A stretch of 64,000 nt of DNA. It comes from Flavobacteriales bacterium. Lineage in GTDB: Bacteria > Bacteroidota > Bacteroidia > Palsa-965. The stretch spans positions 8,334 to 72,333 of the forward strand of contig NSIF01000003.1 of NCBI GenBank assembly GCA_002737665.1, read 5' to 3'. The notes beneath the pieces are model-generated. The model saw nothing but the letters and a program-made list of their open reading frames with translations. It searched no databases and had not been told where the DNA came from. Positions 7,976 through 57,086 of the stretch are shown in pieces (the stretch's first letter is position 1; the number at the start of each line of letters is the position of its first letter). The position numbers and the translations under genes are program-made.

Positions 7976-8004
7976 TGCTGCATTTTTAAGAAAGCATCAC
8001 GATT

Positions 8005-9405: not shown

Positions 9406-9505
9406 TTTTTATTTTGAGGTATAAAAATACCGTTTTTTATTGATATGAAAATAGCGAATTTTATTTAAGTTGGATAATTAGATCTGTTTTTTGGAATTAG
9501 ATCAT

Positions 9506-9539
9506 AAAAAAACCTCTTCTGAAAGGAAGAGGTTTTTAA
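9506..9539 (-). terminator. intrinsic terminator of atpDC
   Basis: 9-bp stem aacctcttc / gaagaggtt with a 6-nt loop, followed on the minus strand by a run of 7 U (plus-strand A-run 9506-9512). Lies 21 nt after the atpC stop. Confidence 0.75.
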
Positions 9540-9559
9540 ACGTTTTTGTTTTTTAAATA

Positions 9560-9796
9560 TTATTCAGCTAGAACGATAATTTTATTTTTATGAACTTCTG
9601 CAACTCCGCCGTTGATATCAAAATACAATGTTTCTTGTTTTTCATCAATAATTTTAATTTTCCCTTTTTTAAGAGATGAAATCATTGAAGCATGCTTGTT
9701 TAATACGCCGAAAGTACCGGAAGTGCCAGGTAGCAAGACCGATTTAACGTCGCCGCTGAACAATTTTTTATCTGGTGTAATAATTTCTAAAAACAT
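9560..9796 (-). CDS. atpC: F0F1 ATP synthase subunit epsilon (short form)
   Basis: 78 aa. MFLEIITPDKKLFSGDVKSVLLPGTSGTFGVLNKHASMISSLKKGKIKI is the beta-sandwich domain. Lies immediately downstream of atpD. Confidence 0.85.
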   Translation of the reverse strand: MFLEIITPDKKLFSGDVKSVLLPGTSGTFGVLNKHASMISSLKKGKIKIIDEKQETLYFDINGGVAEVHKNKIIVLAE

Positions 9797-9835
9797 AGTC
9801 TTTCATTTCGCCCTTCAAACAGCAGAGGCATTTAT

Positions 9836-11407
<1,572 letters not shown>

Positions 11408-11491
11408 TTATAAAAAAATCTCCACAAAAAGACAATTTAATGGCTTATGAATTGATATTGATAGACTTTGTTTGTATGAATGCTGATTTCT

Positions 11492-11499
11492 TAGATTTG
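11492..11499 (+). promoter_or_regulatory. -7 box TAGATTTG upstream of ribF
   Basis: Exact TAnnTTTG match in the atpD/ribF divergent intergenic region. Confidence 0.4.
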
Positions 11500-11542
11500 A
11501 AATACTTTGTCGGTTACACTTTGTCAATTACCTTTACTAACT

Positions 11543-12469
11543 GTGAAAATTTACAAGCATCTGGAGGATTTTATAAGCGCTAGAAATGCCGTTGTTACAA
11601 CCGGAACCTTTGATGGCGTTCACCTTGGTCACCAGCAACTAATTACACGATTGAAAGAAACAGCCAATCGAACAAACGGAGAGACGGTTTTGCTTTCTTT
11701 TTTTCCTCATCCTAGGATGGTTTTGAATCCCGATAATAAAATTTCATTATTGAACACAGAGGAAGAAAAAATAAGTTTGCTTGAAAAAGCGGGTATTGAT
11801 CATTTGATTGTTCATCCTTTCAATCGTGAATTTTCAATGCTAAGTTCTGAGGAGTTTATTAAATCTATTTTAGTTAGCAAGCTTTGCACAAAAAAATTGA
11901 TAATTGGCTATGATCATCATTTTGGACGTGACCGTTTGGGAAGCTTTAACCATTTAAAGGAGTTTGGTCCGGTTTATGGATTTGACATCGAAGAAATACC
12001 AGCACAAGAAGTGAAAAATATAGGTGTAAGCTCAACAAAAATTAGAACCGCTTTGCAAAGTGGGAATCTTGAAATTGTTGAATCTTTTTTAGGGTATAAA
12101 TATGAATTAACAGGAATAGTAGTGAAGGGAAGGCAATTAGGTCGATCTATTGATTTTCCCACTGCAAACTTGCTCATCAGTGATGCACTTAAAATGATTC
12201 CTGCAGATGGTGTTTATGCTGTTTGGGTAAAGCGACGCGATTCAGTATTAAAAGGAATGCTTAATATAGGTATGCGTCCTACGTTAGACGGAAAAGAACG
12301 TACTTTAGAAGTTAATATTTTAGATTTTGAAGGTGATTTGTACGGAGAAACGCTTACTTTATATTTTGTCAATCGACTTCGCAGTGAAATAAAATTTGAT
12401 GGGTTGGATGCCTTGAAAGTTCAGCTTGGGAAAGATCGTGAAGCAACAAGAAATATACTCTTAGATTAG
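11543..12469 (+). CDS. ribF: bifunctional riboflavin kinase / FAD synthetase
   Basis: The ORF track starts at TTG 11507. GTG 11543 (VKIYKHLEDF) fits the usual RibF N-terminus better, but the start is uncertain. Motifs: TTGTFDGVHLGHQ and ...GRQLGRSIDFPTANL...LNIGMRPT. Confidence 0.9.
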   Translation: MKIYKHLEDFISARNAVVTTGTFDGVHLGHQQLITRLKETANRTNGETVLLSFFPHPRMVLNPDNKISLLNTEEEKISLLEKAGIDHLIVHPFNREFSMLSSEEFIKSILVSKLCTKKLIIGYDHHFGRDRLGSFNHLKEFGPVYGFDIEEIPAQEVKNIGVSSTKIRTALQSGNLEIVESFLGYKYELTGIVVKGRQLGRSIDFPTANLLISDALKMIPADGVYAVWVKRRDSVLKGMLNIGMRPTLDGKERTLEVNILDFEGDLYGETLTLYFVNRLRSEIKFDGLDALKVQLGKDREATRNILLD

Positions 12470-31483: not shown

Positions 31484-32068
31484 TTATTTTTTCTGTCGAT
31501 CTGGATTTTCGCTTAGGAAAGTGTTCCAGCTACCATATTTTTTACCCGAACTTTTTGTACCATTATCTTGAAAATGATGGCATACTGCGGCGGCAAGTGC
31601 GTCGGTTGCATCTAAATATTTTGGTAAATTTTTTATTGCTAGTAATTGCTGCAACATCGCAGCAACTTGTTCTTTTGATGCGTTGCCGTTTCCTGTTACC
31701 GACATTTTAATTTTTTTAGGACTGTATTCGAAAATAGGTACATTTTTATTTAATGCAGCAGCTATTGCTACGCCTTGAGCTCTTCCAAGTTTTAGCATAG
31801 ACTGTACATTTTTTCCAAAAAATGGAGCTTCAATTGCAAATTCATCTGGGAGGTATTGGGTTACCAACTCAGACGTTTTATCAAAAATTGTTTTTAGTTT
31901 TAATGCCGGATCTTTTATTTTTTCCATTCGAATTACACCAAGTTCCAGTAATTTCATTTTCTGATTTGAAATTTGAATTATACCAAAGCCCATGATTGTG
32001 GTGCCTGGGTCAATTCCAAGTATGACCTTATTTTTATTTTTACGCGAATCGGGAGGAGAAAGCTGCAC
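31484..32068 (-). CDS. ruvC: crossover junction endodeoxyribonuclease RuvC
   Basis: 194 aa. ILGIDPGTTIMGFGII, ...FAIEAPFFGKNVQSMLKLGRAQG, and ...ATDALAAAVCH. Confidence 0.9.
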   Translation of the reverse strand: MQLSPPDSRKNKNKVILGIDPGTTIMGFGIIQISNQKMKLLELGVIRMEKIKDPALKLKTIFDKTSELVTQYLPDEFAIEAPFFGKNVQSMLKLGRAQGVAIAAALNKNVPIFEYSPKKIKMSVTGNGNASKEQVAAMLQQLLAIKNLPKYLDATDALAAAVCHHFQDNGTKSSGKKYGSWNTFLSENPDRQKK

Positions 32069-32094
32069 GGCGTTTTGTTACATTTACCAACATT

Positions 32095-33018
32095 ATGTTA
32101 ATTAAACTGCCATCTAAAATTGGCCTGATTATAAAGGTAGCAATTGTTTTTATCGCGCTGCTATATATTCTGTCGCGCTTTATTTTAATGGATGGTGGAA
32201 ATTTATCTTTCCAGACTTTTTTAATTGCCTTACGAGTTCATCCTTTCCTTTTTTATGGTACAATTTTGTTAATGCCATTGAATTGGTTTTTGGAATCATT
32301 GAAGTGGAAAAATGCTGCTGGAAGAGCAATTGATATTTCCTTGTCGAATGCGGTAATGGGTGTGCTTGCAGGAGTTACAATTGGATTAGCAACTCCGAAC
32401 AGAATTGGTGAATTTGTAGGACGAGTTTTCATGGTAAAGGGTGGCGATCGTATTCAACTGTTATTGCTTTCTTCGGTTCCAAGTTTTGCTCAAGTTTTAG
32501 TTACAATCATGCTTGGATTAATTGGGTTTGTGTTACATCCTGAATTTGCGGGATTGGCTACTATCGATTTAATTTTATTATTTGCGGGAGTGTTTTTGGT
32601 TTTTAGTTTACCTTTTATTTTTAGATTCATTCCATATAAGTGGTTGAAGAACATCGCTGTATTAAGATTATTTCCACGTAGGTTGTTTGTTCGAATTTTA
32701 TTGCTTTCTTTTTTACGATACGCTGTTTATGTATTTCAGTTTTGTATAATTCTTTCGTTCTATGGAATTGTTTTTAATTTCGAATTAGTCTTAGTGTGTA
32801 TTGTCATTTCTTATTTTATTGTAACAATTATTCCAACATTTTCATTTACCGAGGTCTTTATTCGTGGTGGAATTGCAGGTATTGTATTCTCAAATGCAGG
32901 TGTTTCATTTAATCTTGCTTTTGCCGCTGCCGTGACGCTTTGGATTATTAATGTGGCTATCCCAGCTTTGATTGGATCTATTTTTGTTTTTAAATTAAAA
33001 TTTTACGCAAACGAGTAA
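32095..33018 (+). CDS. flippase-like / lysylphosphatidylglycerol-synthase-TM-region-like membrane protein (UPF0104 type)
   Basis: 307 aa, about 8 TM helices. ...LKWKNAAGRAI... and GLATPNRIGEFVGRVF pattern. Confidence 0.55.
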   Translation: MLIKLPSKIGLIIKVAIVFIALLYILSRFILMDGGNLSFQTFLIALRVHPFLFYGTILLMPLNWFLESLKWKNAAGRAIDISLSNAVMGVLAGVTIGLATPNRIGEFVGRVFMVKGGDRIQLLLLSSVPSFAQVLVTIMLGLIGFVLHPEFAGLATIDLILLFAGVFLVFSLPFIFRFIPYKWLKNIAVLRLFPRRLFVRILLLSFLRYAVYVFQFCIILSFYGIVFNFELVLVCIVISYFIVTIIPTFSFTEVFIRGGIAGIVFSNAGVSFNLAFAAAVTLWIINVAIPALIGSIFVFKLKFYANE

Positions 33019-34145
33019 TGAGTCATCTTTTATATTTTATTGTTTTTGGTATTATTGTGTTGTACGGAATTTCATTAATTGTACCAACTTTTTATTTTAT
33101 TTTTAAGCGTAAAATTAAAAACAAAGATTTTGTTCCCTCCACTTTTGTTTCTGTTTTATTGCCTGTTAGAAATGAAGAAACACAACTTGTTGAATGTTTA
33201 GAGAGTTTATTGAAATTGAATTATCCAGATAATAAATATGAACTCCTATTAATTAATGACCACTCTACTGACCAAACACGAAAATTAGCGGAGCGATATT
33301 TAGGCCGTTTCCCATTCTTTAAAATAATTGACAATCCTGTAAATGTTTTTGGAAAAAAAAGTGCACTTACGCTAGGAGTTCAGGCAGCGCAAGGTGAACT
33401 TATTGTCACAACTGATGGCGACTGTATTTTGCCTTCTTCATGGTTGTTAAATATTGTGGAGACTTACGAGACTGAAAATCCTGTTTTTATTTCTGGGCCT
33501 GTTGCTTATAAAAAGCAAGGAGGGCTTTTGCGTAATTTACTTGCAATGGAGCAAATTGCTTTACAAATAATTGCATCAGGTTCAATGCAAATGGGTTTGC
33601 CAATTCTTTGTAGTGGAGCTAATTTGGCTTATAAAAAGGATTTTTTTATTGAATCTGGTGGTTATCAAAATGACGTATTGGCGTCTGGCGACGATGTATT
33701 TCTAATGCTCAAAGCACATCGAAAATATCCTGGAAGACTTAGATTTATGTCAGACAGTAGTTCTATTGTTTTGACTTCGCCAGCTGAGAATTTGCGTTTT
33801 GCTATTCAGCAACGAAGCCGCTGGTTATCTAAAATATCAGCATATGGAAATTCATGGATTTCCGGTCTAGGAATACTGGTTTTTTTGTGTAATTGTATAC
33901 CCTTGTTTTTTGCTTTACTTTCATTTTATAACAGTGAATATTTGACGCTATTTTTTTTGACATTTGCGGGCAAGATGTTGATTGATGTTTTGTTGTTATC
34001 TTTGGCAGTCCCTTTTTATAGGGAACCTCGTTTGCTTTTGTTTGCATTTTTTGGAGAAATAGTTTATCCCTTTCTCTCCATTATTTCAGTAGTTGCTGTT
34101 TTTTTTGGCACTTTTAATTGGAAAGGGAGAACTTATAAAGTTTGA
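33018..34145 (+). CDS. family 2 glycosyltransferase, processive type
   Basis: 375 aa. VSVLLPVRNEE, LLLINDHSTD, TDGDC, GANLAYKK, and the Q-x-x-R-W motif QQRSRW, followed by C-terminal TM helices. Its start overlaps the upstream stop (TAATG). Confidence 0.8.
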   Translation: MSHLLYFIVFGIIVLYGISLIVPTFYFIFKRKIKNKDFVPSTFVSVLLPVRNEETQLVECLESLLKLNYPDNKYELLLINDHSTDQTRKLAERYLGRFPFFKIIDNPVNVFGKKSALTLGVQAAQGELIVTTDGDCILPSSWLLNIVETYETENPVFISGPVAYKKQGGLLRNLLAMEQIALQIIASGSMQMGLPILCSGANLAYKKDFFIESGGYQNDVLASGDDVFLMLKAHRKYPGRLRFMSDSSSIVLTSPAENLRFAIQQRSRWLSKISAYGNSWISGLGILVFLCNCIPLFFALLSFYNSEYLTLFFLTFAGKMLIDVLLLSLAVPFYREPRLLLFAFFGEIVYPFLSIISVVAVFFGTFNWKGRTYKV

Positions 34146-34157
34146 AATAATTTTTGA

Positions 34158-35399
34158 ATGAAGGAGGAAAATCAACAGCGTACTTATTCACTTGCTAGTT
34201 TTGCTTTGCAAAGACTACGTCGTGACAAATTAGCGATAACAGGCGTTTGTATTATTTTAGTTTCAATTCTTATTTCAATTTTGGGATATTTGATTACTCC
34301 CGATTCAAGTCCTGATGCTGATACACATATTGACGAAATTGGAATTCAGAAACCTGGATTTAAATGCAAATTAATTTCTTTAAGAAAAAATACCGAAATT
34401 GAAAGTGACAATATTCTTGCACGCATGTTTGTTGGTCGTGCTAACGATTGTGAATATCACGCCTATCAATCGACTTGGTTTTCAGGAAATGATATTGTTT
34501 GGCAAGAGTTTGCCGAAGGTGCTGCAAATGGTGAAATTACTCGCTTTAATTTAGCAGATGCGATATATCCGATCAATCCGGCTTTCCCATTTGTAAGCGA
34601 TACCGTAAATGGATTTGTTGATTTTTACGTTTATGGTGAGGGAGGAAGAATTCATAAAACCACCAAAGAGTTACAACTTGAAATTCAGGCAAATCTTCTT
34701 GAAAATAGAAATATTTTAGGGACAGACCATTTCGGTCGCGATTTATTAAGTCGATTAATGATTGGGACTCGAATTTCACTTTTTGTTGGATTAATTTCTG
34801 TTATTATCTCCTTGCTGATTGGTATTTTGATGGGTTCGATTGCAGGCTTTTTCCGTGGCTGGGTTGATGATGTTATCATGTGGTTTATAAATGTTGTTTG
34901 GTCCATACCAACCTTATTGTTGGTCATTGCAATTACACTTGTACTTGGGAAAGGGATTTTCCCAATTTTTATTGCTGTTGGCTTGACTATGTGGGTGGAA
35001 ACAGCCAGAGTAGTACGAGGACAAATACTGAGTGTTAGAGAGGAGGAATTCATAGAAGCGGGTAGGGCACTAGGGTTCTCTAATATTCGAATTGTTCTTC
35101 GACATTTATTACCAAATGTTATGGGCCCAGTAATTGTTATTTCTGCAAATAATTTTGCTTCCGCTATTCTTATTGAGGCAGGATTAAGTTATTTGGGGAT
35201 TGGTGTTCGACGACCAACTCCATCTTGGGGAATGATGATAAGTGAGTATAAAGGGTATATTCTCACTGGTGATGCATACCTTGCCATTTTACCTGGCGTT
35301 GCCATTATGTTTGTGGTACTTGCTTTTATTTTGTTGGGTAATGGCTTACGGGATGCAATTGATACGAAGTTGGTAGGTGAGGATCAGATTATGACATAA
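34158..35399 (+). CDS. ABC transporter permease (DppC/OppC-like) with long N-terminal extension
   Basis: 413 aa. Permease core ...WSIPTLLLVIAITLVLG...EEFIEAGRALGFSNIRIVLRHLLPNVMGPVIV. No ATPase or binding-protein gene is adjacent. Confidence 0.8.
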   Translation: MKEENQQRTYSLASFALQRLRRDKLAITGVCIILVSILISILGYLITPDSSPDADTHIDEIGIQKPGFKCKLISLRKNTEIESDNILARMFVGRANDCEYHAYQSTWFSGNDIVWQEFAEGAANGEITRFNLADAIYPINPAFPFVSDTVNGFVDFYVYGEGGRIHKTTKELQLEIQANLLENRNILGTDHFGRDLLSRLMIGTRISLFVGLISVIISLLIGILMGSIAGFFRGWVDDVIMWFINVVWSIPTLLLVIAITLVLGKGIFPIFIAVGLTMWVETARVVRGQILSVREEEFIEAGRALGFSNIRIVLRHLLPNVMGPVIVISANNFASAILIEAGLSYLGIGVRRPTPSWGMMISEYKGYILTGDAYLAILPGVAIMFVVLAFILLGNGLRDAIDTKLVGEDQIMT

Positions 35400-35537
35400 T
35401 AATTTGGTAGTCTATAATTGCCTCTATTTCAAGTATTAAATTTTAGAATAATAAATAGATTGTTTTCACAAAGTAAATTATTAATTTAGCACCTCTCACA
35501 CAAAGCTTCGGCTTCTCATTAATAACACATACATTAT

Positions 35538-36155
35538 ATGCATATTGCAATCGCTGGAAATATCGGATCAGGAAAAACTACTCTTACCACTTTGCTTTCG
35601 AAACATTATGGGTGGCAAGCACATTATGAAGATGCAGATGAAAACCCTTATCTCGCCGATTTTTACGAAGACATGCAACGCTGGTCATTCAATCTTCAGA
35701 TATATTTTTTAAATAGTCGGTTTGCGCAGGTAACTGATATTCGTACTTCTGGTCGTGATGTAATTCAAGATCGAACTATCTATGAGGATGCACATATTTT
35801 CGCGCCCAATTTGCATGCGATGGGATTGATGACTACACGTGATTTTGAAAATTATTTTTCACTGTTCAAATTGATGGAATCATTGGTAGCACCACCTGAC
35901 CTAATTATTTATTTGCGTGCTTCTGTACCAACTTTGGTTGCACAAATTCAAAAACGTGGACGTGATTATGAAAATCAAATTCGAATAGATTACCTCAAAC
36001 GTTTGAACGAACGTTATGAAGCATTTATTTCTACTTACGATTCAGGTAAAGTTTTGATTATTGATGTGGATGAAAATAAATTTTCAGAGCATCCTGAACA
36101 CCTTGGTGAAATAATTAATAAAATAGATGCTGAAATTAATGGACTGTTCAAATAG
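35538..36155 (+). CDS. deoxynucleoside kinase
   Basis: 205 aa. IAIAGNIGSGKTTL, ...QDRTIYEDAHIF, and ...IYLRASVPTLVAQIQKRGRDYE. Confidence 0.85.
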   Translation: MHIAIAGNIGSGKTTLTTLLSKHYGWQAHYEDADENPYLADFYEDMQRWSFNLQIYFLNSRFAQVTDIRTSGRDVIQDRTIYEDAHIFAPNLHAMGLMTTRDFENYFSLFKLMESLVAPPDLIIYLRASVPTLVAQIQKRGRDYENQIRIDYLKRLNERYEAFISTYDSGKVLIIDVDENKFSEHPEHLGEIINKIDAEINGLFK

Positions 36156-36200
36156 GACTTCGATACATCCGCCGCGGCGGACACTCAGCTTGACAAAATA

Positions 36201-36236
36201 AAAAAGCGCTCTGAAATTTCAGGGCGCTTTTTTTTT
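36201..36236. terminator. bidirectional intrinsic terminator between convergent genes
   Basis: 12-bp stem agcgctctgaaa / tttcagggcgct with one G-U pair, flanked by A5 and T9 runs. Confidence 0.75.
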
Positions 36237-36245
36237 GCAATTTTC

Positions 36246-37481
36246 TTAAAGACAACTCGCTTCCATCAACCGCACATCCAATTCCAATTGATTGAAATTG
36301 ATCAGCACCAATTCAAATGGAACACGACAGAATTTAGCGTTTTCCCAAGAAAATTTACCTTCCTTTGGGTTTCCGTAACGATCAATATCACTTATGTTTA
36401 GTAGTAAAAGATTTTCCTTGTGAAATTTTTCTTTCAATAGGATATTTAGAATTTTAACATCACTTTTTAGTGCTGTCATTATTGGTTTTGGCTGATCATT
36501 ATTGGTAAATAAAAAACTCATGGGAAGGTTAAAGTTGCCAGCGTTCTCTGACAATAACATTTCCAAATTAGGTTTTGGATTCTGACCAAATGAAGCAAAA
36601 TCAATAATTTGTTTTTTCGCTGCTTCTATTTTCGAGCACAAGGAATTACAACTGTTTTTAAGTTCTGATAGATCTGCTTGCGATTTTGTTGAATCAGTTG
36701 ATAAACTCGCATATTTCAGCTCGTTTTGTTTTGATGCGAATGCATACGCTTTGTCGATGCCTTGAATTGAAGAGGCATATAAATAATGAATTTGCTGACT
36801 TGGTCTGAGACTGGTTAACAAGAACAGCAATCCACCTGCGAACAGAATCAAAAGGGAAGAAACAATGGTATTCATTTTAGTTTCCGAATTTTTTATTCCA
36901 CCGAAAAAATATATTGGAAGAAAAATAAAAATTAAAATTCCTAATGAAATCAACCACATAATTGTCGCTCCAGGCCAATGCATCACTTTAAATAATGAGG
37001 AAATGCTTACAAGAATTCCGAATAGCGTAGCAATTCCCAAAGTGATTTTTTCTCGCTTTTCTTTTACTTCTTTCGCCTTGATTAAAAATAAAATAGGTAG
37101 GAAAATAAAACTGAGAATAAAAACAGCAAGTAAAAATATTGCCGAGGCTCCCGGCCAATGCATTACTTTAAAAAATGATCCAATGATAATTCCAATGGCA
37201 GCGAATGTTCCGCTTAAAAGCATTACTTTTTTCATGGTGTAATAGTGTTTAAAGGTTAATACTAATTCTGTTTCTTCCTGAATTTCCCGTAATTCTCGTT
37301 TATAAAAACGAGTAATCACAATTCTGTAAAATTCATCAAAGTCTTGTTCTGGTGACATTTCATTTTCAATAACGCAACAGATATGATCCAGGAGATTGAG
37401 CTGCAGCTCCTCCAACTCAATGCCATTACGTCTAATGTCATCGAGAATAAATGATACCTGTTGTTCACTTAAAACAAACAT
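36246..37481 (-). CDS. PadR-coupled membrane protein with duplicated GldL-like TM hairpins and GldM-N-like C-terminal domain
   Basis: 411 aa. Cytoplasmic helical N-domain. Two 60-aa TM-hairpin units each carrying FKVMHWPGA...FIFLPI (motifs at 37143-37172 and 36963-36992). The C-terminal 170 aa ends ...FSWENAKFCRVPFELVLINFNQLELDVRLMEA. Its start lies 1 nt after the padR stop. Confidence 0.6.
   Translation of the reverse strand: MFVLSEQQVSFILDDIRRNGIELEELQLNLLDHICCVIENEMSPEQDFDEFYRIVITRFYKRELREIQEETELVLTFKHYYTMKKVMLLSGTFAAIGIIIGSFFKVMHWPGASAIFLLAVFILSFIFLPILFLIKAKEVKEKREKITLGIATLFGILVSISSLFKVMHWPGATIMWLISLGILIFIFLPIYFFGGIKNSETKMNTIVSSLLILFAGGLLFLLTSLRPSQQIHYLYASSIQGIDKAYAFASKQNELKYASLSTDSTKSQADLSELKNSCNSLCSKIEAAKKQIIDFASFGQNPKPNLEMLLSENAGNFNLPMSFLFTNNDQPKPIMTALKSDVKILNILLKEKFHKENLLLLNISDIDRYGNPKEGKFSWENAKFCRVPFELVLINFNQLELDVRLMEASCL
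36867..37226 (-). repeat. tandem in-frame duplication of a 60-aa (180-nt) TM-hairpin unit
   Basis: Residues 86-145 versus 146-205 of the 411-aa protein. FKVMHWPGA and FIFLPI sit at identical offsets. About 24 of 60 residues are identical by hand alignment. Confidence 0.6.
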
Positions 37482-37482
37482 G

Positions 37483-37821
37483 CTAACCGATGTTTAGTTT
37501 CAGATCAAGTAAAAAGACCATCGTGTTCATGAATTCCCTGAACTCGCTTACTTTTTCTTTAGCCATTTTTTTACCCGTTTTGGTAATGGTGTAATACTTA
37601 CGAATCCGGTTTCCTACATTAACCGTTTTCGTCGTCAAAATTCCATCTGCTTCCAGCGCATGCAGTGTAGGATACAATGCGCCTTCCGTCAATTGAATTT
37701 TTCCGTCAGTAAGCTCCTTTACCTTTTGGGTAATTTCATAGCCGTACATTTTGTCGTTCTCCGACAACAACTTTAAAATGATTGTTTTTAAAGTTCCTTT
37801 TATGAGTTCTGATGAATACAT
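37483..37821 (-). CDS. PadR-family transcriptional regulator
   Basis: The ORF track starts at 37836. ATG 37821 gives MYSSELIKGTLKTIILKLLSENDKMYGYEITQKV...LTEGALYPTLHALEADGIL...RKYYTITKTGKK, a canonical winged-helix PadR. Confidence 0.85.
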   Translation of the reverse strand: MYSSELIKGTLKTIILKLLSENDKMYGYEITQKVKELTDGKIQLTEGALYPTLHALEADGILTTKTVNVGNRIRKYYTITKTGKKMAKEKVSEFREFMNTMVFLLDLKLNIG

Positions 37822-37825
37822 AGTA

Positions 37826-37833
37826 CAAATATA
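37826..37833 (-). promoter_or_regulatory. -7 box TATATTTG upstream of padR
   Basis: The plus strand reads caaatata. It ends 4 nt before ATG 37821, so the mRNA is leaderless or near-leaderless. Confidence 0.45.
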
Positions 37834-37846
37834 CACTTTATTTTAG

Positions 37847-37871
37847 ATATACATATAAGTCTTATGTATAT
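37847..37871. promoter_or_regulatory. perfect 9-bp inverted repeat, candidate PadR operator
   Basis: ATATACATA-taagtct-TATGTATAT. It contains ACAT/ATGT half-sites and sits between the padR -7 box and the adhesin -7 box. Confidence 0.4.
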
Positions 37872-37935
37872 TTTTAAAACGCATGCATTTATTGGAATAT
37901 TGTGTGGGAGCGGTTTTTTATATGTATTCAGAGAT

Positions 37936-37943
37936 TATATTTG
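37936..37943 (+). promoter_or_regulatory. -7 box TATATTTG upstream of the giant adhesin gene
   Basis: Exact TAnnTTTG match, 17 nt upstream of ATG 37961. Confidence 0.45.
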
Positions 37944-37960
37944 TATTAAATATAAATTTT

Positions 37961-40900
37961 ATGATAAAATTTAATGCTACTTTCCTTTACCTATTCTTTT
38001 CTTCAACTATAGCGCTAGCTCAATTACCAGTGATACGCAGCACGTTTACTGGGCCTTATACTCCTATTAATATGCCAGCAGCAACCTTATCTACTGCATC
38101 GGGTGATGATGATGTGCAAAGTGCAATTCCATTAGGATTTACATTTAATTATTTAGGAATAAATTATACAACTATTGGCGTAAGTACAAATGGCGTTGCT
38201 TCTTTTAGCGCTGCAATGTCTACCTCAGGAACGAATAATAATTTATATGTTGGAGCAGCACCAAATTTAAGTCTCGCTCCTTGGTGGGATAATATTTGGT
38301 CTGATACTATATTATACCAATTGCAGGGCCCACCTGCCAATCGGACTTTTACTATTCAGTGGACGAATTCACTTTCTTATAATAATACAGCAACACAGCT
38401 GTTGAATTTTCAGATTATTTTGCACGAAACATCTGATGTAATTGAGTTTAGTTATGGTAATATGGTACCAGGAATCGCAGCAGCAAATGAGTCTGCTTCT
38501 ATTGGCATTGAAAGCTTAGTTGGTGGTGCCGGTGATTATCTTGATGCTATTACAGGGTCTCCATTTACGAGTAACGGAATGCTAAATTCGTCAACGCAAT
38601 GGCCTTCGCATAATTTCAGATTTACGCCAGGCACTGCTGCTGCTCTTGTAGGTGGAACTTATACAGTTGGCCTGACAGGAAACTATTATAGTTTGAGTGA
38701 AGCAATTGCTGACATTAACCATAGCGGAATTGCTGGGCCGATAATTCTTTCGCTCATAGATAATAATTATGATGTTTCTGCTGCAAATGGCGATAATTAT
38801 TTTCCAATGTTAATTGGACCAGTAAATGGCTCGTCTTCCTTTAATACAATTACCATTTCCTCTTTTGTAGGTACATCAATAATTACTTCTGAGGGAACCA
38901 ACAATGGTAATTGTGGAAATGCTGCTGCAAATAATATCATTAGTAATATAAATGAACCTATCCTTGCACTTGTAGGAGCTAGTTATATTAATTTACAAAA
39001 TATTGAATTAAATTGTTCTAATACCGGTATTGTCGATCGAGGTTTATTTGTAATTAATTCATCTGCAATTGTGGGTTCTCAAAATAATTTATTCACCGGT
39101 ATTACTGTTGCGCTCAATAGAGGGAATGCAACGAGTATGGGTATTGAACAACGTGCAATAACAACTCCAACAGCTATTGGTGGAGCAAATTCAACTAATG
39201 GATATTTCAATCTCGATATTTCCAATGTATACAATGGTATGTATCTCAACGGAAATGCTGCGTTTCCAGATTTGAATAGTGTCATAGGTAATACTTCAGC
39301 GACTCAATTTAATATGATTGGAGCGGCAACTATAGATGATATTGGAAATGGCAATACAACCACTTATGGTATTCGTGCCAATAATCAAAATGGTGTTTCA
39401 ATTTATAATAATGAAGTTCGAAATGTTTCACAAAATGGTAATTCAACAGCAGAGGGAATTATTTTAGATGCTGCTGTTGGTTCCAATAATGTATATACGA
39501 ATAAAGTTCATGCAATAAATTATAGAGGTTTAACGAATACGGGTAACATTACTGGCATTCGTGCTAATTTGGCTGCGGTAGGTGCAAATTCTGTAAATAT
39601 TTTCAATAATTTTATTTATGATATTGGTTCTTCCTACACTGGAGCAGCTTCAGCAATGCGTGCAACTAAGGGGATTTATGTTCAATCTATTGGTGGTGGC
39701 ACGAATGCAAGTACTATTAATGTAGATTTTAATTCGGTGAGAATGGATAATTCTAATTCCCTAACTCTTTCAGGAACATGTTTTGAAATTGGTGCAACGA
39801 ATGGTCCCGTACTTAATTTACGCAATAATATATTTTCCAATTTCACGCAAGCGCAAACTGGAATCGCGAGACACTTTGCAATGGCAAGCACATCGGCCAC
39901 TGCAGTAGGGAATACAGGGTCAATATCTGATTACAATAATTTTTATATTGATAATACTACAAATGGTTTTGTAGGTATCGGTGCTACAACCACATTCGCA
40001 TCACTTCCTAATTGGCAAACCGCTGTATCACAAGATTTCAATTCTTTAGGTGTTGATCCGTCATTCAATTCTTCTAACGACTTGCATTCCTCTGCCCTTG
40101 CATTAAACGGTACAGGTAACATGACTGGAATTACGTGGGTAACAAATGATATTGATAACCAACAGCGTTCTATTACACCAGATATTGGCGCCGATGAATT
40201 TGTACCATTGTTACTTGATGCAGGTGTAACTACTTTAGTTGCGCCATTAACTACTGGTTGTTATACAGCTTTAGAACAAGTTACGGTTACTTTGAAAAAT
40301 TTCGCAACTGTCCCACTTGATTTTACAATCGATCCTGTAACCATTGTTGTAAATGTGACCGGATCATTAACGCAAACACTTTCATTTACAATCAATACGA
40401 ATATTCTGAATGCCAATTTACCGCTATCATCAGATAGTTCCATTGTTGTACCTATAGGATTAATTAGCATGACAGTTAGCGGAATTTATACTTTCGATGC
40501 ATATAGTATTTTAGGTGGAGATGGAAATTCATTTAATAATTCAATGTCTACTGTGAATATTAATTTTTCACCTGGAACTGCGACAGCTTCACCAGTTTCT
40601 GTTTGTGCAGGAGCTTCTACTACGCTAACTTTAACTGGAGCGGGGAATGGTGGAACTATTCAATGGCAAAGTAGTACAGATGGTGGTATTACCTGGAACA
40701 ATGAAACTGGTATTGGCTCTACTACTACTTCCTATGTTGTAATTCCAACTGCTAATACATTGTATCAGGTATTATTTTGTGGTGTATTAATTTCCAATGT
40801 GGATACTGTAAATTATTATCAATTGTCGGTCCCAGCAGTAATTGGTGATACGATTTGTGGCTCTGGTGTAGCAAATTTAAATGCAACCGGCAACGGAATC

Positions 40901-43099
40901 ATTCAGTGGTATGCCTTACCTACAGGAGGTAATACGCTTGCAACAGGAGGCGTTTATTCACCTTCAATTTCTGCTACTACAACTTTTTATGTTACCAATA
41001 CTTCAGGAAATATAGTTCAAAGTGTTGGCTTATATGACAACTCTGCAGGTGGAGGAATGTCGGGATCTGCAAATAGTTTAATCTTTGATGTGTTTCAGTA
41101 TGCTACACTTAATGGTGTATATGTATATCCAGCTGCTGCTGGAAATATTGTGATTGACCTCATTGATAGTTCGAATGTTGTACTAAATACTGTTACAGTG
41201 GCAGTAGTATTAGCTGATGTTAACCAGCGTACATTTATTCCACTTAACTTTAGTTTGTCACCTGCAGTTGGAATGCGTCTTGTTCGTAATGCCACTTCAG
41301 TTAATCTTTGGAGAAACAACGTTGGAGTAAATTATCCTTATTCACTACCTGGTGTACTTTCAATCACAGCGAGCACTGCAGGAAATGGATTTTATTATTT
41401 CTTTTACGATTGGCAGATTAATTATGGTTGCGAAAGTCTACGTGTTCCCGTAAATGCTGTTGTATTAGCAGCACCTGCAATTTCAATTACTGCAGCATCT
41501 GTTTTTTTATGTGCAGGCGACAGTACAACAATAACTGTTACGAGTACAAATTCTGGGTATTCTTATTTATGGTCTCCAGCAGGAACTCTGAATACAAATT
41601 CTGGCTCATCTGTTATCGCAACACCGAATGCAGCAATTGTCTATACTGTAATTGGAAATGATTCTATTAATGGATGTCAGATTACAGATAGTATTTTGAT
41701 TTCAGTAACCAGTATACCACCAATTATTATTTCAGTAGCCGATTCCGTTATTTGCAATGGCAGTTCTGATACTTTAATTTTTAATTATCCAACGCAAAGT
41801 GTGGGACTGTATGATAATTCTGCAGGTGGTGCTCAGTCTGGTTCTGGTAATAATTTAATTTTTGATGTGTTGGGTAATTGTACTTTGGCTGGAGTTTATA
41901 TTTATCCAGGAGCCGCAGGAAATGTAATTATTGAATTGCAGGATAATACAAATGCTGTTATTAATTCAGCCACTTTTAATGCCACAACGGCGCAGATAAA
42001 CCAGCGTGTTTATGTTCCACTTAATTTTTCACTTACTCCAGGTACTGGAATGCAACTCGTTCGTAACGGAACATCTATAAATCTTTGGAGAAATAATGTC
42101 GGTGTAAATTATCCTTACACCTTACCTGGTTTAATTTCAATTACAACAAGTACTGCTGGAAATGGTTTTTATTATTTCTTTTATGATTGGCAAATAATGA
42201 CTTCAAACGCATTAACTTATGTTTGGTCATCTATTCCTACTGGTTATACTAGCACAAATGATACTGCAATTGTAACTCCAAGTATTAGTACTCAATATAT
42301 TTTAACTGTAACTGATTCCATTTCAGGTTGTACTGCTCAATTTAATAGGAACATTGATATTGCTACGCCAATTGTTGCAATTATTGGAGGGAATCAATCA
42401 ATTTGTTTAGGCGACACTGCAACGCTAATTGCTGGATTCAGTGGTGGTGATGGAAATACATATTACGTTTGGAGTAATAATCTTGGAACAAATGATTCTG
42501 TCAACGTGTTTCCATCAGTAAATACAAATTATTCTTTAATTGCAATTGATGGATGTGGATCACTTTCAAATGATACGGCTACAGTGATTGTAAATACAGT
42601 TCCACCAGTTGTTGGTTTTACATATTCTGTTACTGGCTTATTGACTTTTACTTTTTCAGACGCTTCAGTAAATGCCACATCATGGTTTTGGGATTTTGGA
42701 GATTTGACAACTTCGACATTGCAAAATCCAACACATGTTTATGCCGCGATAGGTACTTATACTGTTTTATTGATTGCGTCAAATGGTTGTGGGTCTGATA
42801 CACTCATACAAGTAATACTTGTGGATGGTATTGAAAATAATTTCCTTACTTCTGGTGTAAGTATTTTCCCTAATCCTGCGAAAAATCAATTTAATGTGTC
42901 ATTTAATAATGACAAATCTTCATTTGTAACGATTCAATTTTTCAATCTTCAGGGAAAGTTGATTCAGGAAAAACAAATCAGTAATGTTAAAGCCGGTACA
43001 ACTGTTCCAATGAATGTCGAAGGATATCCAAATGGTATGTATTTGCTGAAACTTATTGGTGAAAACGAGTCTGCTTTTTTTAAAATTATAGTTCAGTAA
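37961..43099 (+). CDS. giant T9SS-secreted adhesin-like protein (beta-helix repeats, Ig-like domains, duplicated 134-aa module, PKD domain, CTD)
   Basis: The ORF track starts at 37883. ATG 37961 gives the signal peptide MIKFNATFLYLFFSSTIALAQ. Parallel-beta-helix-like N/G-rich repeats (NNEVRNVSQNGN..., NIFNNFIYDIG...). Ig-like domains with C..G.S..L...IQWQSSTDGGITW. PKD domain WFWDFGDLTTSTLQNPTHVYAAIGTYTVLLIASNGCG. T9SS CTD at the end. Confidence 0.9.
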   Translation: MIKFNATFLYLFFSSTIALAQLPVIRSTFTGPYTPINMPAATLSTASGDDDVQSAIPLGFTFNYLGINYTTIGVSTNGVASFSAAMSTSGTNNNLYVGAAPNLSLAPWWDNIWSDTILYQLQGPPANRTFTIQWTNSLSYNNTATQLLNFQIILHETSDVIEFSYGNMVPGIAAANESASIGIESLVGGAGDYLDAITGSPFTSNGMLNSSTQWPSHNFRFTPGTAAALVGGTYTVGLTGNYYSLSEAIADINHSGIAGPIILSLIDNNYDVSAANGDNYFPMLIGPVNGSSSFNTITISSFVGTSIITSEGTNNGNCGNAAANNIISNINEPILALVGASYINLQNIELNCSNTGIVDRGLFVINSSAIVGSQNNLFTGITVALNRGNATSMGIEQRAITTPTAIGGANSTNGYFNLDISNVYNGMYLNGNAAFPDLNSVIGNTSATQFNMIGAATIDDIGNGNTTTYGIRANNQNGVSIYNNEVRNVSQNGNSTAEGIILDAAVGSNNVYTNKVHAINYRGLTNTGNITGIRANLAAVGANSVNIFNNFIYDIGSSYTGAASAMRATKGIYVQSIGGGTNASTINVDFNSVRMDNSNSLTLSGTCFEIGATNGPVLNLRNNIFSNFTQAQTGIARHFAMASTSATAVGNTGSISDYNNFYIDNTTNGFVGIGATTTFASLPNWQTAVSQDFNSLGVDPSFNSSNDLHSSALALNGTGNMTGITWVTNDIDNQQRSITPDIGADEFVPLLLDAGVTTLVAPLTTGCYTALEQVTVTLKNFATVPLDFTIDPVTIVVNVTGSLTQTLSFTINTNILNANLPLSSDSSIVVPIGLISMTVSGIYTFDAYSILGGDGNSFNNSMSTVNINFSPGTATASPVSVCAGASTTLTLTGAGNGGTIQWQSSTDGGITWNNETGIGSTTTSYVVIPTANTLYQVLFCGVLISNVDTVNYYQLSVPAVIGDTICGSGVANLNATGNGIIQWYALPTGGNTLATGGVYSPSISATTTFYVTNTSGNIVQSVGLYDNSAGGGMSGSANSLIFDVFQYATLNGVYVYPAAAGNIVIDLIDSSNVVLNTVTVAVVLADVNQRTFIPLNFSLSPAVGMRLVRNATSVNLWRNNVGVNYPYSLPGVLSITASTAGNGFYYFFYDWQINYGCESLRVPVNAVVLAAPAISITAASVFLCAGDSTTITVTSTNSGYSYLWSPAGTLNTNSGSSVIATPNAAIVYTVIGNDSINGCQITDSILISVTSIPPIIISVADSVICNGSSDTLIFNYPTQSVGLYDNSAGGAQSGSGNNLIFDVLGNCTLAGVYIYPGAAGNVIIELQDNTNAVINSATFNATTAQINQRVYVPLNFSLTPGTGMQLVRNGTSINLWRNNVGVNYPYTLPGLISITTSTAGNGFYYFFYDWQIMTSNALTYVWSSIPTGYTSTNDTAIVTPSISTQYILTVTDSISGCTAQFNRNIDIATPIVAIIGGNQSICLGDTATLIAGFSGGDGNTYYVWSNNLGTNDSVNVFPSVNTNYSLIAIDGCGSLSNDTATVIVNTVPPVVGFTYSVTGLLTFTFSDASVNATSWFWDFGDLTTSTLQNPTHVYAAIGTYTVLLIASNGCGSDTLIQVILVDGIENNFLTSGVSIFPNPAKNQFNVSFNNDKSSFVTIQFFNLQGKLIQEKQISNVKAGTTVPMNVEGYPNGMYLLKLIGENESAFFKIIVQ
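41018..41419 (+). repeat. 134-aa module copy 1 inside the adhesin
   Basis: QSVGLYDNSAGGGMSGSANSLIFDV...NLWRNNVGVNYPYSLPGVLSITASTAGNGFYYFFYDWQI. Confidence 0.85.
41795..42196 (+). repeat. 134-aa module copy 2 inside the adhesin
   Basis: QSVGLYDNSAGGAQSGSGNNLIFDV...NLWRNNVGVNYPYTLPGLISITTSTAGNGFYYFFYDWQI. Same length as copy 1 with no gaps. 93 of 134 residues are identical by hand alignment. Confidence 0.85.
42860..43096 (+). other. T9SS C-terminal sorting domain
   Basis: SIFPNPAKNQFNVSF...VTIQFFNLQGKLIQEKQI...PNGMYLLKLIGENESAFFKIIVQ. Confidence 0.85.
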
Positions 43100-55559: not shown

Positions 55560-57086
55560 TTATTTTATAACAGAAATCTTTACGCTTTGTGAAAAAGTAT
55601 AACCCTGCATAATGCAAATATAATTTCCAACTGCAAGGTTCAACGCTGAAGCATTTATTTCTAAAATATGCTTCCCAGCTTCTTGATTTCCATCAACAAG
55701 AATTGCAACTTCTTTTCCAAAAAGATCATATAAAACAATTTTTACAGCTGAATTTTGTTTCATGTTGTAGGAAAGTGTTGTGCTTATGTTAAATGGATTT
55801 GGAACATTTTGTTGCAGTGTAAAGTAAGGATTGTCAAGTTCTAAATTTCCTAAATTTTGTGGACAAATTCGGTAAATTAATCCTGCAGTAGTATAACCAC
55901 CTTTCATTGCGTAAACACATCCTTCGGCGCCTTGTTTTAGTGTGGTAAGTCCTCCAGCAAGATCCTGCCATGGTACGCGAGTAAGCATCGTATCATAGGC
56001 GGGTGCGTTGCCTAAAGTTAGATCATAAATTCTTCCGTAGTCATTATCTGCTACCAAAAGATGGTTGTCAAATTCGGGCATAACTTGGCTGCTGTAATAA
56101 AGTATACCTGTTAGCGATGGTAATGGTGATCCCCAAACTTCAAGTGGTAATACATCATTTTGAAGATTGCAAGGAACTGTTGTGGAACCGTTCATAAATC
56201 GTCCTTCACAGTTGGCCCAGCCATAATTAGCCCCTTTATGTATTACGTCCACCTCATCCCAAGCATTCAATCCGTTTTCTGCGACGTACATGGTGTCACT
56301 TACAGGGCTAAAACAGAAGTCGAATGGATTGCGAAGCCCATAACTCCAAATAATATCAGAGTTGCCTGTCAACGGATTTCCATCATCATAATAAGGATTA
56401 TCGGTAGGTATATTGGCTCCAATAGTCCCAACTGCATGTACATTGTAGTTTGGGTTACCAATACTTATTGGATCCTTACCAATACGAAGTACTTTACCAA
56501 ATGTTCTATTGAGTTTGTTTGCGTAATTAAGTGTTGGATTTGTTTGTTGGTAGGCAATATCCCCGATGGTGAAATAAATAAGAGCGGGCTCAGACGGGCG
56601 AAAATGCAGGTTTCCACCTACGTGATTCCCAGGAATGTTGAAAGAAGTAATATCAAAGTCAAAAATTATTTGGGGATTTGTTCCAACGTTATTCACCTCG
56701 GTAAATCGAGCAATTCTTATACGCTCACTACCATTTAGAAAATGGTTATAATAAACGTATACAAAATGATTGTTTACGAAATCGGGATCACATGTAATTC
56801 CCAGCAGCCCTCGTTCAAAATCTGAATTCACAGAGTCGGATAAATCGTAAAAATTGGAAATAAAAACCCCTGCAACAGTGAACACTTTTATTCTAGCAGA
56901 GCCTGTTGTTGCTGGAGTGGAACCATTTCCTTTTTGTGTGATAAAAATACGCCCCTCACCAGAAAAATCAAATGCAACCGGGTATTGAAGCCCTGTACAT
57001 ATATTAGTTGTTGTATAGACCTGTGCATTTATGGTTGCAGTTGTCAGCAACAATATTGTTGTTAATACAAAACGTGTGATTTTCAT
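55560..57086 (-). CDS. PQQ-dependent sugar dehydrogenase-like beta-propeller with T9SS CTD
   Basis: ATG 57086 gives the signal peptide MKITRFVLTTILLLTTATINAQ. ERGLLGITCDPDF, HVGGNLHF, IWSYGLRNPFDFCFSP, and YVAENGLNAWDEVDVIHKGANYGW. Confidence 0.75.
   Translation of the reverse strand: MKITRFVLTTILLLTTATINAQVYTTTNICTGLQYPVAFDFSGEGRIFITQKGNGSTPATTGSARIKVFTVAGVFISNFYDLSDSVNSDFERGLLGITCDPDFVNNHFVYVYYNHFLNGSERIRIARFTEVNNVGTNPQIIFDFDITSFNIPGNHVGGNLHFRPSEPALIYFTIGDIAYQQTNPTLNYANKLNRTFGKVLRIGKDPISIGNPNYNVHAVGTIGANIPTDNPYYDDGNPLTGNSDIIWSYGLRNPFDFCFSPVSDTMYVAENGLNAWDEVDVIHKGANYGWANCEGRFMNGSTTVPCNLQNDVLPLEVWGSPLPSLTGILYYSSQVMPEFDNHLLVADNDYGRIYDLTLGNAPAYDTMLTRVPWQDLAGGLTTLKQGAEGCVYAMKGGYTTAGLIYRICPQNLGNLELDNPYFTLQQNVPNPFNISTTLSYNMKQNSAVKIVLYDLFGKEVAILVDGNQEAGKHILEINASALNLAVGNYICIMQGYTFSQSVKISVIK
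55563..55823 (-). other. T9SS C-terminal sorting domain
   Basis: LQQNVPNPFNISTTLSYNM...VKIVLYDLFGKEVAILVDG...VGNYICIMQGYTFSQSVKISVIK. Confidence 0.8.

Follow-up and report, generated by a model that had tools for sequence, protein, structure and literature searches.

A padR gene coupled to a membrane protein assembled from GldL-type and GldM-type domains: a candidate signalling module in Bacteroidota

Organization of the locus

A 64,000-nucleotide (nt) stretch of contig NSIF01000003.1 from a Flavobacteriales bacterium (assembly GCA_002737665.1, positions 8,334 to 72,333), termed here the window, carries on its minus strand a short gene for a PadR-family regulator. It is followed directly by an open reading frame (ORF) of 411 amino acids (aa), listed at 36246–37481 (minus strand), whose product is termed the partner. 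The partner is composed of two GldL-type transmembrane (TM) hairpins, a GldM-type TM helix and a domain of the GldM D1 type, i.e. of parts resembling the two subunits of the GldLM motor. [quoted passage not shown] Positions are those of the window; the features are listed in Table 1.

The mechanical list of ORFs opens padR at a GTG codon at position 37836 (37483–37836, minus strand). The true start is almost certainly the ATG at 37821, since the bases before this ATG are conserved at the DNA level as a promoter; the product is then 112 aa long (MYSSELIKG...). It scores 77 bits against Pfam PF03551 (cutoff 27) and is thus a PadR winged-helix protein. Forty solved PadR-family structures match it at E < 1e-5, the nearest being short PadR/LmrR-type regulators. 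It has no cysteine.

Relatives of the partner were collected by a full scan of 1.84 billion representatives, with 1616 found at E ≤ 1e-3 and 310 at E ≤ 1e-30; some of the weaker matches are other hairpin architectures. Of the 185,579 species genomes that were scanned, at least 309 have a gene for a relative. Counts of loci given below refer to the best 80 relatives from these 309 genomes, and 78 of the 80 have upstream DNA in which padR could be looked for.

The plus-strand bases at 37479–37485 are catgcta, which on the coding strand read TAG-C-ATG. The padR stop codon and the start codon of the partner gene are therefore 1 nt apart, as the sequence-only reading had stated. The distance from stop to start is −4 to +3 nt in 68 of the 78 related loci (exactly 1 nt in 31 of them), and this spacing shows a coupling of the two genes beyond chance.

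The terminator is common to the two-gene operon, which it ends 9 nt past the stop codon, and to a convergent deoxynucleoside kinase gene. The fold of the minus-strand RNA has a ΔG of −19.6 kcal/mol (z = −4.8), and none of 200 shuffled sequences was equally stable. The operator/promoter, padR, the partner gene and the terminator form a self-contained unit.

Table 1. Features of the padR locus in the window, and operons of related genomes with an additional gene (B).
Feature	Position	Strand	Basis or remark
Bidirectional intrinsic terminator	36199..36237	.	RNA fold, U-run after stem
Periplasmic helical domain homologous to GldM/PorM D1, residues 226–411	36249..36806	-	HMM, Foldseek
Fifth TM helix, residues 202–225, in the position of the GldM TM helix	36807..36878	-	Foldseek, flanking HMM alignment
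GldL-type TM hairpin 2, residues 148–196, turn FKVMHWPGA	36894..37040	-	Repeat of hairpin 1
GldL-type TM hairpin 1, residues 86–141, turn FKVMHWPGA	37059..37226	-	Pfam GldL_N, best stretch residues 92–139
Cytoplasmic N-domain, residues 1–85	37227..37481	-	AF2 helices, invariant motif
padR, short (112 aa) PadR-family winged-helix repressor	37483..37821	-	Pfam PadR, E = 1.1e-21
Bacteroidota-type −7 box, TAtaTTTG	37826..37833	-	4 nt before padR ATG
Predicted PadR operator, 21-bp palindrome ATACATAA-GACTT-ATATGTAT	37849..37869	-	Conserved upstream of padR
Three-gene operons padR-A-B	L081:117-2878, L084:1186-3936, L090:3663-6438		Gene calls

HMM, hidden Markov model; AF2, AlphaFold2.

Domain composition of the partner

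The turn sequence FKVMHWPGA is found twice in the partner, at residues 104–112 and 164–172, and FIFLPI likewise occurs twice. The two hairpins are 58% identical over 43 residues (E = 2e-14) and are therefore true repeats rather than chance resemblances. Pfam GldL_N (PF22827) recognizes two stretches of the partner with 37.2 bits, above its cutoff of 24. A profile made from 42 hairpins of the family matches the solved structures of GldL (7sau_C, E = 3.9e-5) and PorL (7sat_C, E = 0.0022), and the turn aligns with that of GldL residue by residue (FKimHWPga with FKILHWTGA). The turns in solved GldL/PorL structures are FKILHWTGA, FKLLHLPMG and FKILHLKGG.

The equivalents of residues K27 and H30 of GldL are kept in most of the 252 aligned sequences (K in 249 and H in 228 for hairpin 1; 223 and 232, respectively, for hairpin 2). 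The NCBIfam model of full-length GldL (TIGR03513) gives 23.9 bits against a cutoff of 68.3, and the match is confined to model positions 3–45 of 247; the cytoplasmic C-terminal domain of GldL is absent from the partner. There is no other ORF with a GldL-type hairpin within the window.

The remainder of the partner resembles GldM. A profile of 30 family sequences, searched against the sequences of the PDB, gave as its top matches 7sau_A (GldM, E = 4.5e-9) and 7sat_A and 6ey0_A (PorM, E = 1.3e-6). The alignment with GldM begins where the TM helix ends and extends as far as the final helix of D1, with profile position 221 corresponding to GldM residue 22. Pfam GldM_1st (PF12081) scores the partner itself at 22 bits, under the cutoff of 25, and covers profile positions 20–187 (168 of 194); relatives of 476–497 aa with the same N-domain score 51–64 bits.

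The AF2 model of the partner has a mean predicted local distance difference test score (pLDDT) of 80.9, with about 81–95 in the periplasmic domain. A Foldseek search of the PDB with this model has GldM/PorM structures as all of its top 15 matches (probability 1.00). The best of these is 7saz_B, with a target TM-score of 0.76 and a root mean square deviation of 2.9 Å over 220 columns. The alignments, about 220 columns long, cover the whole of the GldM' chains, i.e. the TM helix and D1. The fifth TM helix is preceded by a conserved cytoplasmic loop, G-I-R-N-P-E-T-K-x-N-T, and in relatives the TM helix before the D1-type domain ends ...LLAMNVSK or ...LALNVS, as it does in GldM.

The C-terminus of the partner is ...FSWENAKFCRVPFELVLINFNQLELDVRLMEASCL, and the stretch FSWENAKF...QLELDVRLMEASCL quoted in the sequence-only reading is present. 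D1 of solved GldM/PorM closes with W-E...F...P...LQ.(D/N)VR..E, and this agrees with the end block F-x-x-x-P...Q-x-D-V...E given for GldM in the sequence-only reading. The turn FK(I/L)xHxPGA given there for GldL/PorL is likewise similar to those of the solved structures listed above. Both comparisons that had been suggested, of the hairpins with GldL and of the C-terminal part with the N-terminal domain of GldM, gave significant matches. Thus the proposals of two tandem units of about 60 aa, and of a GldL hairpin and a GldM N-terminal domain fused in one polypeptide, hold: the repeat alignment bears out the first, and GldL_N, the hairpin profile, the GldM profile and Foldseek agree on the second.

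The HWPGA turns and D1 are on the periplasmic side of the membrane, and two loops rich in lysine (KAKEVKEKREK and GIKNSETK) are on the cytoplasmic side. This topology matches the orientation of both GldL and GldM, and the N-domain is therefore cytoplasmic. In the AF2 model it consists of three short helices and the start of a long helix that becomes TM1 (helices at residues 6–18, 24–41, 48–59 and 62–84; pLDDT 84–92 over the first 60 residues).

Residues 1–85 are the most conserved part of the partner, and the D1-type periplasmic domain is the most variable. The N-domain displays a motif, D32-H33-x-C35-C36-x-x-E39, in which C36 is found in 250 of the 251 aligned relatives and the other four residues (D32, H33, C35 and E39) in every one. 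The motif (residues 32–39; given at window positions 37380–37388) sits in the second cytoplasmic helix, and it persists as DH[IV]CC in a subfamily with three hairpins. One may speculate from this conservation that DHxCCxxE is a protein contact (to PadR), a metal-binding site or a thiol-redox site. It is proposed that the N-domain is a PadR-contact or output domain, and the D1-type domain an input domain.

When a profile of the N-domain was used to look for other architectures, the only matches were short pieces of this family at the ends of contigs, which was uninformative. In one locus (L087:178-1410) two ORFs 12 nt apart are called, one for the N-domain (77 aa) and one for the hairpins and D1 (328 aa); this is either a frameshift/pseudogene or a naturally split protein.

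Pairing with padR in related genomes

All 78 loci in which padR could be looked for have it as the gene immediately preceding the partner gene, in the same orientation. The PadR proteins show 62%–96% identity (median 76%), and the partners have a median identity of 46%. PadR is an obligate companion of the membrane protein. Besides padR there is no conserved neighbour: the best candidate is present in 17 of 80 loci, and neither a T9SS gene nor a gldKLMN/porKLMN cluster is among the conserved neighbours. Of the genes that lie upstream of padR, 35 are divergent from it and 34 co-directional with it.

In five loci the divergent gene beside padR encodes tandem F-K-x-M-H-W-P-G-A hairpins of the GldL_N type. 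Three of these genes (L036:4168-5586, L050:2496-3908 and L067:4136-5548, all on the minus strand) encode proteins of ~470 aa in which the hairpins are followed by a C-terminal SpoIIE/PP2C phosphatase domain; the other two (L044:4740-5486 and L062:4747-5481, minus strand) encode 244–248 aa proteins with hairpins only. As the hairpins are also fused to a cytoplasmic SpoIIE/PP2C phosphatase, the hairpin pair looks like a membrane module in general use among signalling proteins of Bacteroidota.

The best 80 relatives are nearly all from metagenome-assembled genomes (MAGs) labelled Bacteroidota, including Crocinitomicaceae, Flavobacteriales and Bacteroidia. Several MAG titles appear to be mislabelled or mis-binned (among L080, L015, L017, L022, L027, L032, L037, L043, L051 and L061), e.g. 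‘Azovibrio restrictus’, a betaproteobacterium, and freshwater MAGs titled ‘Chryseobacterium gleum’ and ‘Chitinophaga pinensis’. The taxon labels of this set are therefore unfit for defining a host range.

Every member of the family is annotated as ‘hypothetical protein’. Papers that treat GldL jointly with PadR, GldL-, GldM-, PorL- or PorM-like proteins or PF22827 were looked for in the open literature, with no relevant result. The Pfam matches are precomputed in public tables, and the architecture is thus visible there although undescribed. A PadR and membrane-partner dyad with a putative sensor recruited from the GldLM motor would be a previously undescribed variant.

Residues required for motor function

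Motor function needs the invariant residues Glu49 of GldL and Tyr17 of GldM, and the conserved residues Tyr13 of GldL and Arg9 of GldM (10.1101/2020.05.11.089193). In the HMM alignment the equivalents of Glu49 are L123 in hairpin 1 and L183 in hairpin 2; over 252 relatives these columns contain F/L/I/M/V/A and L/S/F/M, respectively. The Tyr13 equivalent is Gly in 251 of the 252 in hairpin 1, and Gly or Ala in hairpin 2. The equivalents of Arg9 and Tyr17 of GldM, with the register taken as an ungapped extension of the flanking HMM alignment through the helix, are S208 and G216; the family has S/T/N and G/C/T in these columns, with no Arg or Tyr. Relatives with three hairpins have an aromatic residue near the Tyr17 position, but no Arg.

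Acidic residues are found in TM1 to TM5 of 0, 1, 3, 12 and 4 of the 252 sequences, and those in TM2 and TM4 are at no conserved position. The sequence-only reading had noted the lack of acidic residues in the second helix of either hairpin and had taken the protein as probably no proton-driven motor. The first point is true of the window protein and nearly so of the family (Asp or Glu in TM2 of 1/252 and in TM4 of 12/252), and the second is strengthened by the loss of the Glu49 and Tyr13 equivalents and the near absence of acidic residues from the TM helices of all 252 relatives.

In addition, the partner ORF ends at residue 411, immediately after D1. Domains D2–D4 of GldM are absent, and the partner therefore cannot span the periplasm. 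The hairpins and the central helix are tethered covalently, which precludes continuous rotation. With the parts tethered, and with the coupling residues missing as well as the domains through which the real motor engages its cytoplasmic and outer-membrane partners, a rotary motor function is not expected; judged from its sequence, the partner is not a motor.

Relatives with three hairpins

Among the top 150 representatives, 14 carry a third hairpin. Six of these relatives were looked up, and each has padR immediately upstream; in the four for which the junction is covered by sequence-level gene calls, padR and the partner gene overlap by 8–23 nt. Termed A, the product has the N-domain, three hairpins and the GldM helix–D1 part. 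A second gene (B) follows the A gene in four of the five loci with enough downstream sequence, the exception being L091. The B protein lacks an N-domain and is made up of two hairpins of the GldL_N type, a TM helix of the GldM type that ends ...LLALNVS or ...LSLQVGKEVI, and a GldM_1st domain.

A and B together have five hairpins and two GldM helix–D1 units, and this is the same count as in the GldL5:GldM2 motor. The correspondence suggests that the family may have begun as a fused copy of the whole stator, of which the single-gene form in the window would be a simplified version. As a homodimer the window protein would be 4:2.

A subclade of the three-hairpin proteins (P0235, P0248, P0249 and P0255) has a membrane-embedded Glu in the first helix of hairpin 3 (..IIFE[AIL]STMFK..). 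Others have Tyr or Gly at that site. This Glu is the sole recurrent acidic TM residue seen in the superfamily. Candidates for a B-type partner, i.e. one without an N-domain, near the window subfamily turned out to be truncations at contig edges (L085, L086) or the split ORF in L087 described above.

A tentative and rather doubtful reading is that the family is a fused, disabled copy of the complete 5:2 GldLM stator, with A and B of the ancestral-looking operons forming a five-hairpin ring round two central helices and the window protein forming a homodimer with a 4:2 count. Triggered at D1, the central GldM-like pair would turn slightly against the hairpin ring, and this motion, passed on to the DHxCC N-domain, would switch PadR; that domain may contain a metal or two Cys residues with redox activity. 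If true, this would be the first rotary-motor architecture turned into a transmembrane switch for a transcription factor.

Another reading is that the partner is a working miniature of GldLM, an ion-driven machine or channel that reports the proton-motive force to PadR. Homology to both stator subunits, the motor stoichiometry of five hairpins and two GldM-like helices in related operons, and the conservation of K27 and H30 at the periplasmic interface would all fit such a machine; the absence of Glu49, Tyr17, Tyr13 and Arg9, TM helices that are essentially without acidic residues, and tethers between hairpins and central helix that forbid continuous rotation make it highly improbable, and less likely than the main rival considered below.

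Operator and promoter of padR

The predicted operator belongs to a family of palindromes with the consensus ATAC[AC]TA[AG]-N5-[CT]TA[TG]GTAT, in which the spacer is always 5 nt. Of 76 related loci, 67 have the palindrome 5′ of padR, at a typical distance of 28 nt from the start codon. In the window the site at 37849–37869 is the sole one with at most one mismatch, and PadR presumably binds there. With up to two mismatches, 0.43 matches are expected by chance in the 64 kb. A search for a second operator, or a regulon, in the window gave just one weak site with two mismatches (56223–56243), which is within this chance expectation.

TAnnTTTG is the consensus of the Bacteroidetes promoter −7 box. 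In the window the plus-strand bases caaatata read TATATTTG on the coding strand. A TAnnTTTG sequence is found within 40 nt of the padR start in 58 of 74 loci, exactly 4 nt ahead of the ATG in 43, and the block is conserved at the DNA level among relatives. A −7 box only 4 nt before the padR ATG implies a near-leaderless transcript. The palindrome would then lie over the −33 region of a near-leaderless promoter, which is the layout expected for autorepression. A scan for sigma-70 promoters is uninformative here, as this is a Bacteroidota sequence.

The neighbouring adhesin gene

Divergent from padR is a gene for a 1738-aa adhesin, a T9SS substrate with PKD and Ig_7 domains and a Por_Secre_tail C-terminal domain (E = 3.4e-14). 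The padR operator lies in the short intergenic region that the two genes share. Four relatives of 69%–72% identity (L001, L003, L004 and L088) retain the downstream genes, with the convergent deoxynucleoside kinase present in all four, but have no adhesin gene upstream.

In L088 (71% identical, on a 4.84-Mb contig) positions 7339–12170 are syntenic with 31484–36155 of the window; the shared genes encode the deoxynucleoside kinase, an OppC-like permease, a GT2 glycosyltransferase, an LPG-synthase-TM protein and RuvC. Upstream of padR are ORFs that are unrelated and co-directional in L001, and genes for an acetyltransferase and an H+-pyrophosphatase in L088. As the upstream side is wholly different in syntenic relatives, the promoter side of padR is a synteny breakpoint and does not indicate a functional link.

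A block conserved at the DNA level, CCGCTCCCACACAATATT on the padR strand (~37891–37916 of the plus strand, about 70–95 nt upstream of padR), is kept in the same four relatives, none of which has the adhesin gene at that place. It falls in the first 27 codons of the adhesin ORF (37883–43099). The true start of the adhesin is probably a Met further along, ahead of the signal peptide (MIKFNATFLYLFFSSTIALAQ, about 37961); in that case the block would have a regulatory role or belong to a small divergent ORF.

These observations bear on the proposal that the partner docks on, or competes with, genuine GldLM/T9SS subunits, reports the state of secretion or gliding and controls T9SS cargo such as this adhesin. 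Homology to GldL and GldM would permit mixed assemblies, and the padR operator does lie in the short divergent region before a gene whose product has a T9SS C-terminal domain. Adjacency to the adhesin, however, is absent even in the 69%–72% identical relatives in which the downstream genes are still syntenic, T9SS genes are not among the conserved neighbours, and the window has no second operator; this explanation is very unlikely. Thus, in the sequence-only reading, the domain composition, the pairing with PadR and the loss of motor function stand, whereas control of the divergent adhesin and reporting of the T9SS state do not. Co-regulation of the adhesin gene and padR in the window genome itself is still conceivable.

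Function of the gene pair

It is fairly probable that padR and the partner gene constitute an autoregulated two-gene signalling module in which the membrane protein is the transmembrane sensor. By analogy with known PadR pairs (see below), the most likely function of the partner is that of a transmembrane sensor or anti-repressor for PadR.

Three steps can be proposed. PadR dimers would bind ATACATAA-N5-TTATGTAT over the −33 region of their own promoter and keep expression of the operon low. A cue in the periplasm or the membrane would act on the variable D1 and on its contact with the conserved FKxxH turns of the hairpins, and cause the TM bundle to repack; the bundle within the membrane might also take up the cue itself. 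Repacking would alter the cytoplasmic N-domain, which would capture or release PadR and so change transcription. The contact between N-domain and PadR, the direction of control and the stimulus are inferred. The pattern of conservation fits a transducer: the N-domain and PadR are the most conserved parts, and the periplasmic domain is the most variable.

Three points weigh against this interpretation. First, the N-domain, which is without a GxP motif, has no detectable similarity to HAAS, DUF1700 or DUF1048. Eighteen N-domains scanned with E up to 10 gave no meaningful match to a Pfam family and none to DUF1700, DUF1129 or DUF1048; a profile search found no PDB sequence, and a Foldseek search with the AF2 model found no match with E < 1. 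The same Pfam scan and Foldseek search speak against the possibility, raised in the sequence-only reading, that the partner belongs to an unrelated PadR-associated sensor family that already has a name. Second, the fifth TM helix is identified as GldM-type from where it lies, from its alignment in Foldseek and from helix ends of the NVS type in relatives, not by sequence alone; a PDB search with residues 196–255 found no GldM. Third, the same genomic picture is expected if the second gene merely encodes a product that PadR represses.

This third point is the main rival, i.e. that the membrane protein is a regulated effector, with PadR sensing a small molecule, a known property of PadR and LmrR, and derepressing an envelope-protective or structural protein. 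The closest solved relatives of this PadR are indeed short PadR regulators akin to ligand binders of the LmrR type, PadR repressors are reported to govern the production of trans-membrane proteins in Listeria (PMC6624303), and the layout of operator and promoter fits simple autorepression. An effector would, however, have no obvious use for an invariant cytoplasmic N-domain that is the most conserved part of the protein. The overlap or near-abutment of the genes in 68/78 loci suggests co-production in a fixed ratio, the periplasmic domain varies as input domains do, and sister proteins bear the same hairpins fused to a SpoIIE/PP2C phosphatase, which argues for a signalling role of the hairpin module. 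The effector explanation is accordingly regarded as unlikely.

Significance

Read as a signalling pair, the locus is a case in which the Bacteroidota-specific GldLM/PorLM subunits have been put to a use other than motility and secretion, namely that of the membrane component in a PadR system. It also widens the concept of a PadR partner to include a domain missed by current profiles. Natural fusions of GldL and GldM, including the 3+2 operons, could serve as probes of the contacts that the hairpin ring makes with D1 and the central helices. They separate the residues of assembly (the K27/H30-type turn and the closing helix of D1) from those of proton coupling (Glu49, Arg9 and the two tyrosines), which are lost. 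For annotation it should be noted that matches to GldL_N and GldM_1st alone do not identify T9SS motor genes.

Comparison with known systems

With GldL/PorL (PF22827; PDB 6YS8, 7SAT, 7SAU, 7SAX, 7SAZ) the partner shares the TM hairpin, the turn FK(I/V/L)xH(W/L) and the equivalents of K27 and H30. It differs in having the hairpin twice within a larger protein, Leu/Phe in place of Glu49 and Gly/Ala in place of Tyr13, no cytoplasmic C-terminal domain, and a location outside a gldKLMN cluster. With GldM/PorM (PF12081; PDB 6EY4, 6EY0, 7CMG, 7SB2) it shares the TM helix and D1, including the closing W-E..F..P...LQ.DVR..E. It differs in that it stops after D1 and, with D2–D4 absent, cannot reach the GldK/GldN ring; Arg9 and Tyr17 are also absent, and the GldM-type part is fused downstream of GldL-type hairpins rather than being a separate subunit.

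Dyads of HAAS and PadR have been proposed by Ravi et al. (mSystems 2024, PMC11237479) to be alternatives to two-component systems. The Listeria lftRS operon (LftR/LftS) is a related case (PMC4517056). The window pair is alike in that a short PadR is encoded in a tight operon with a partner that has a small cytoplasmic helical N-terminus followed by a multi-TM or sensory module. HAAS, represented in Pfam by DUF1700, DUF1129 and DUF1048, is formed by three helices with a GxP kink (PDB 2O3L); the N-domain of the partner takes the place that HAAS has in those dyads and is predicted to have three short helices, but it has no GxP and a DHxCCxxE motif of its own. A module of GldL hairpins and GldM D1 is not among the fusions listed in the part of PMC11237479 that was available. 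Since similarity to HAAS was not found by Pfam, by PDB sequence or by fold, the N-domain is treated as a functional analogue that may or may not belong to HAAS, and the window module is inferred to be a functional counterpart of the HAAS-PadR and LftR/LftS dyads.

The third comparison is with the 5:2 stators (MotAB, ExbBD, TolQR, GldLM). The related padR-A-B operons give 3+2 = 5 hairpins and two central TM helices with D1. Here these parts are fused into one or two polypeptides and are without the coupling charges, and the output would be a transcription factor instead of mechanical work.

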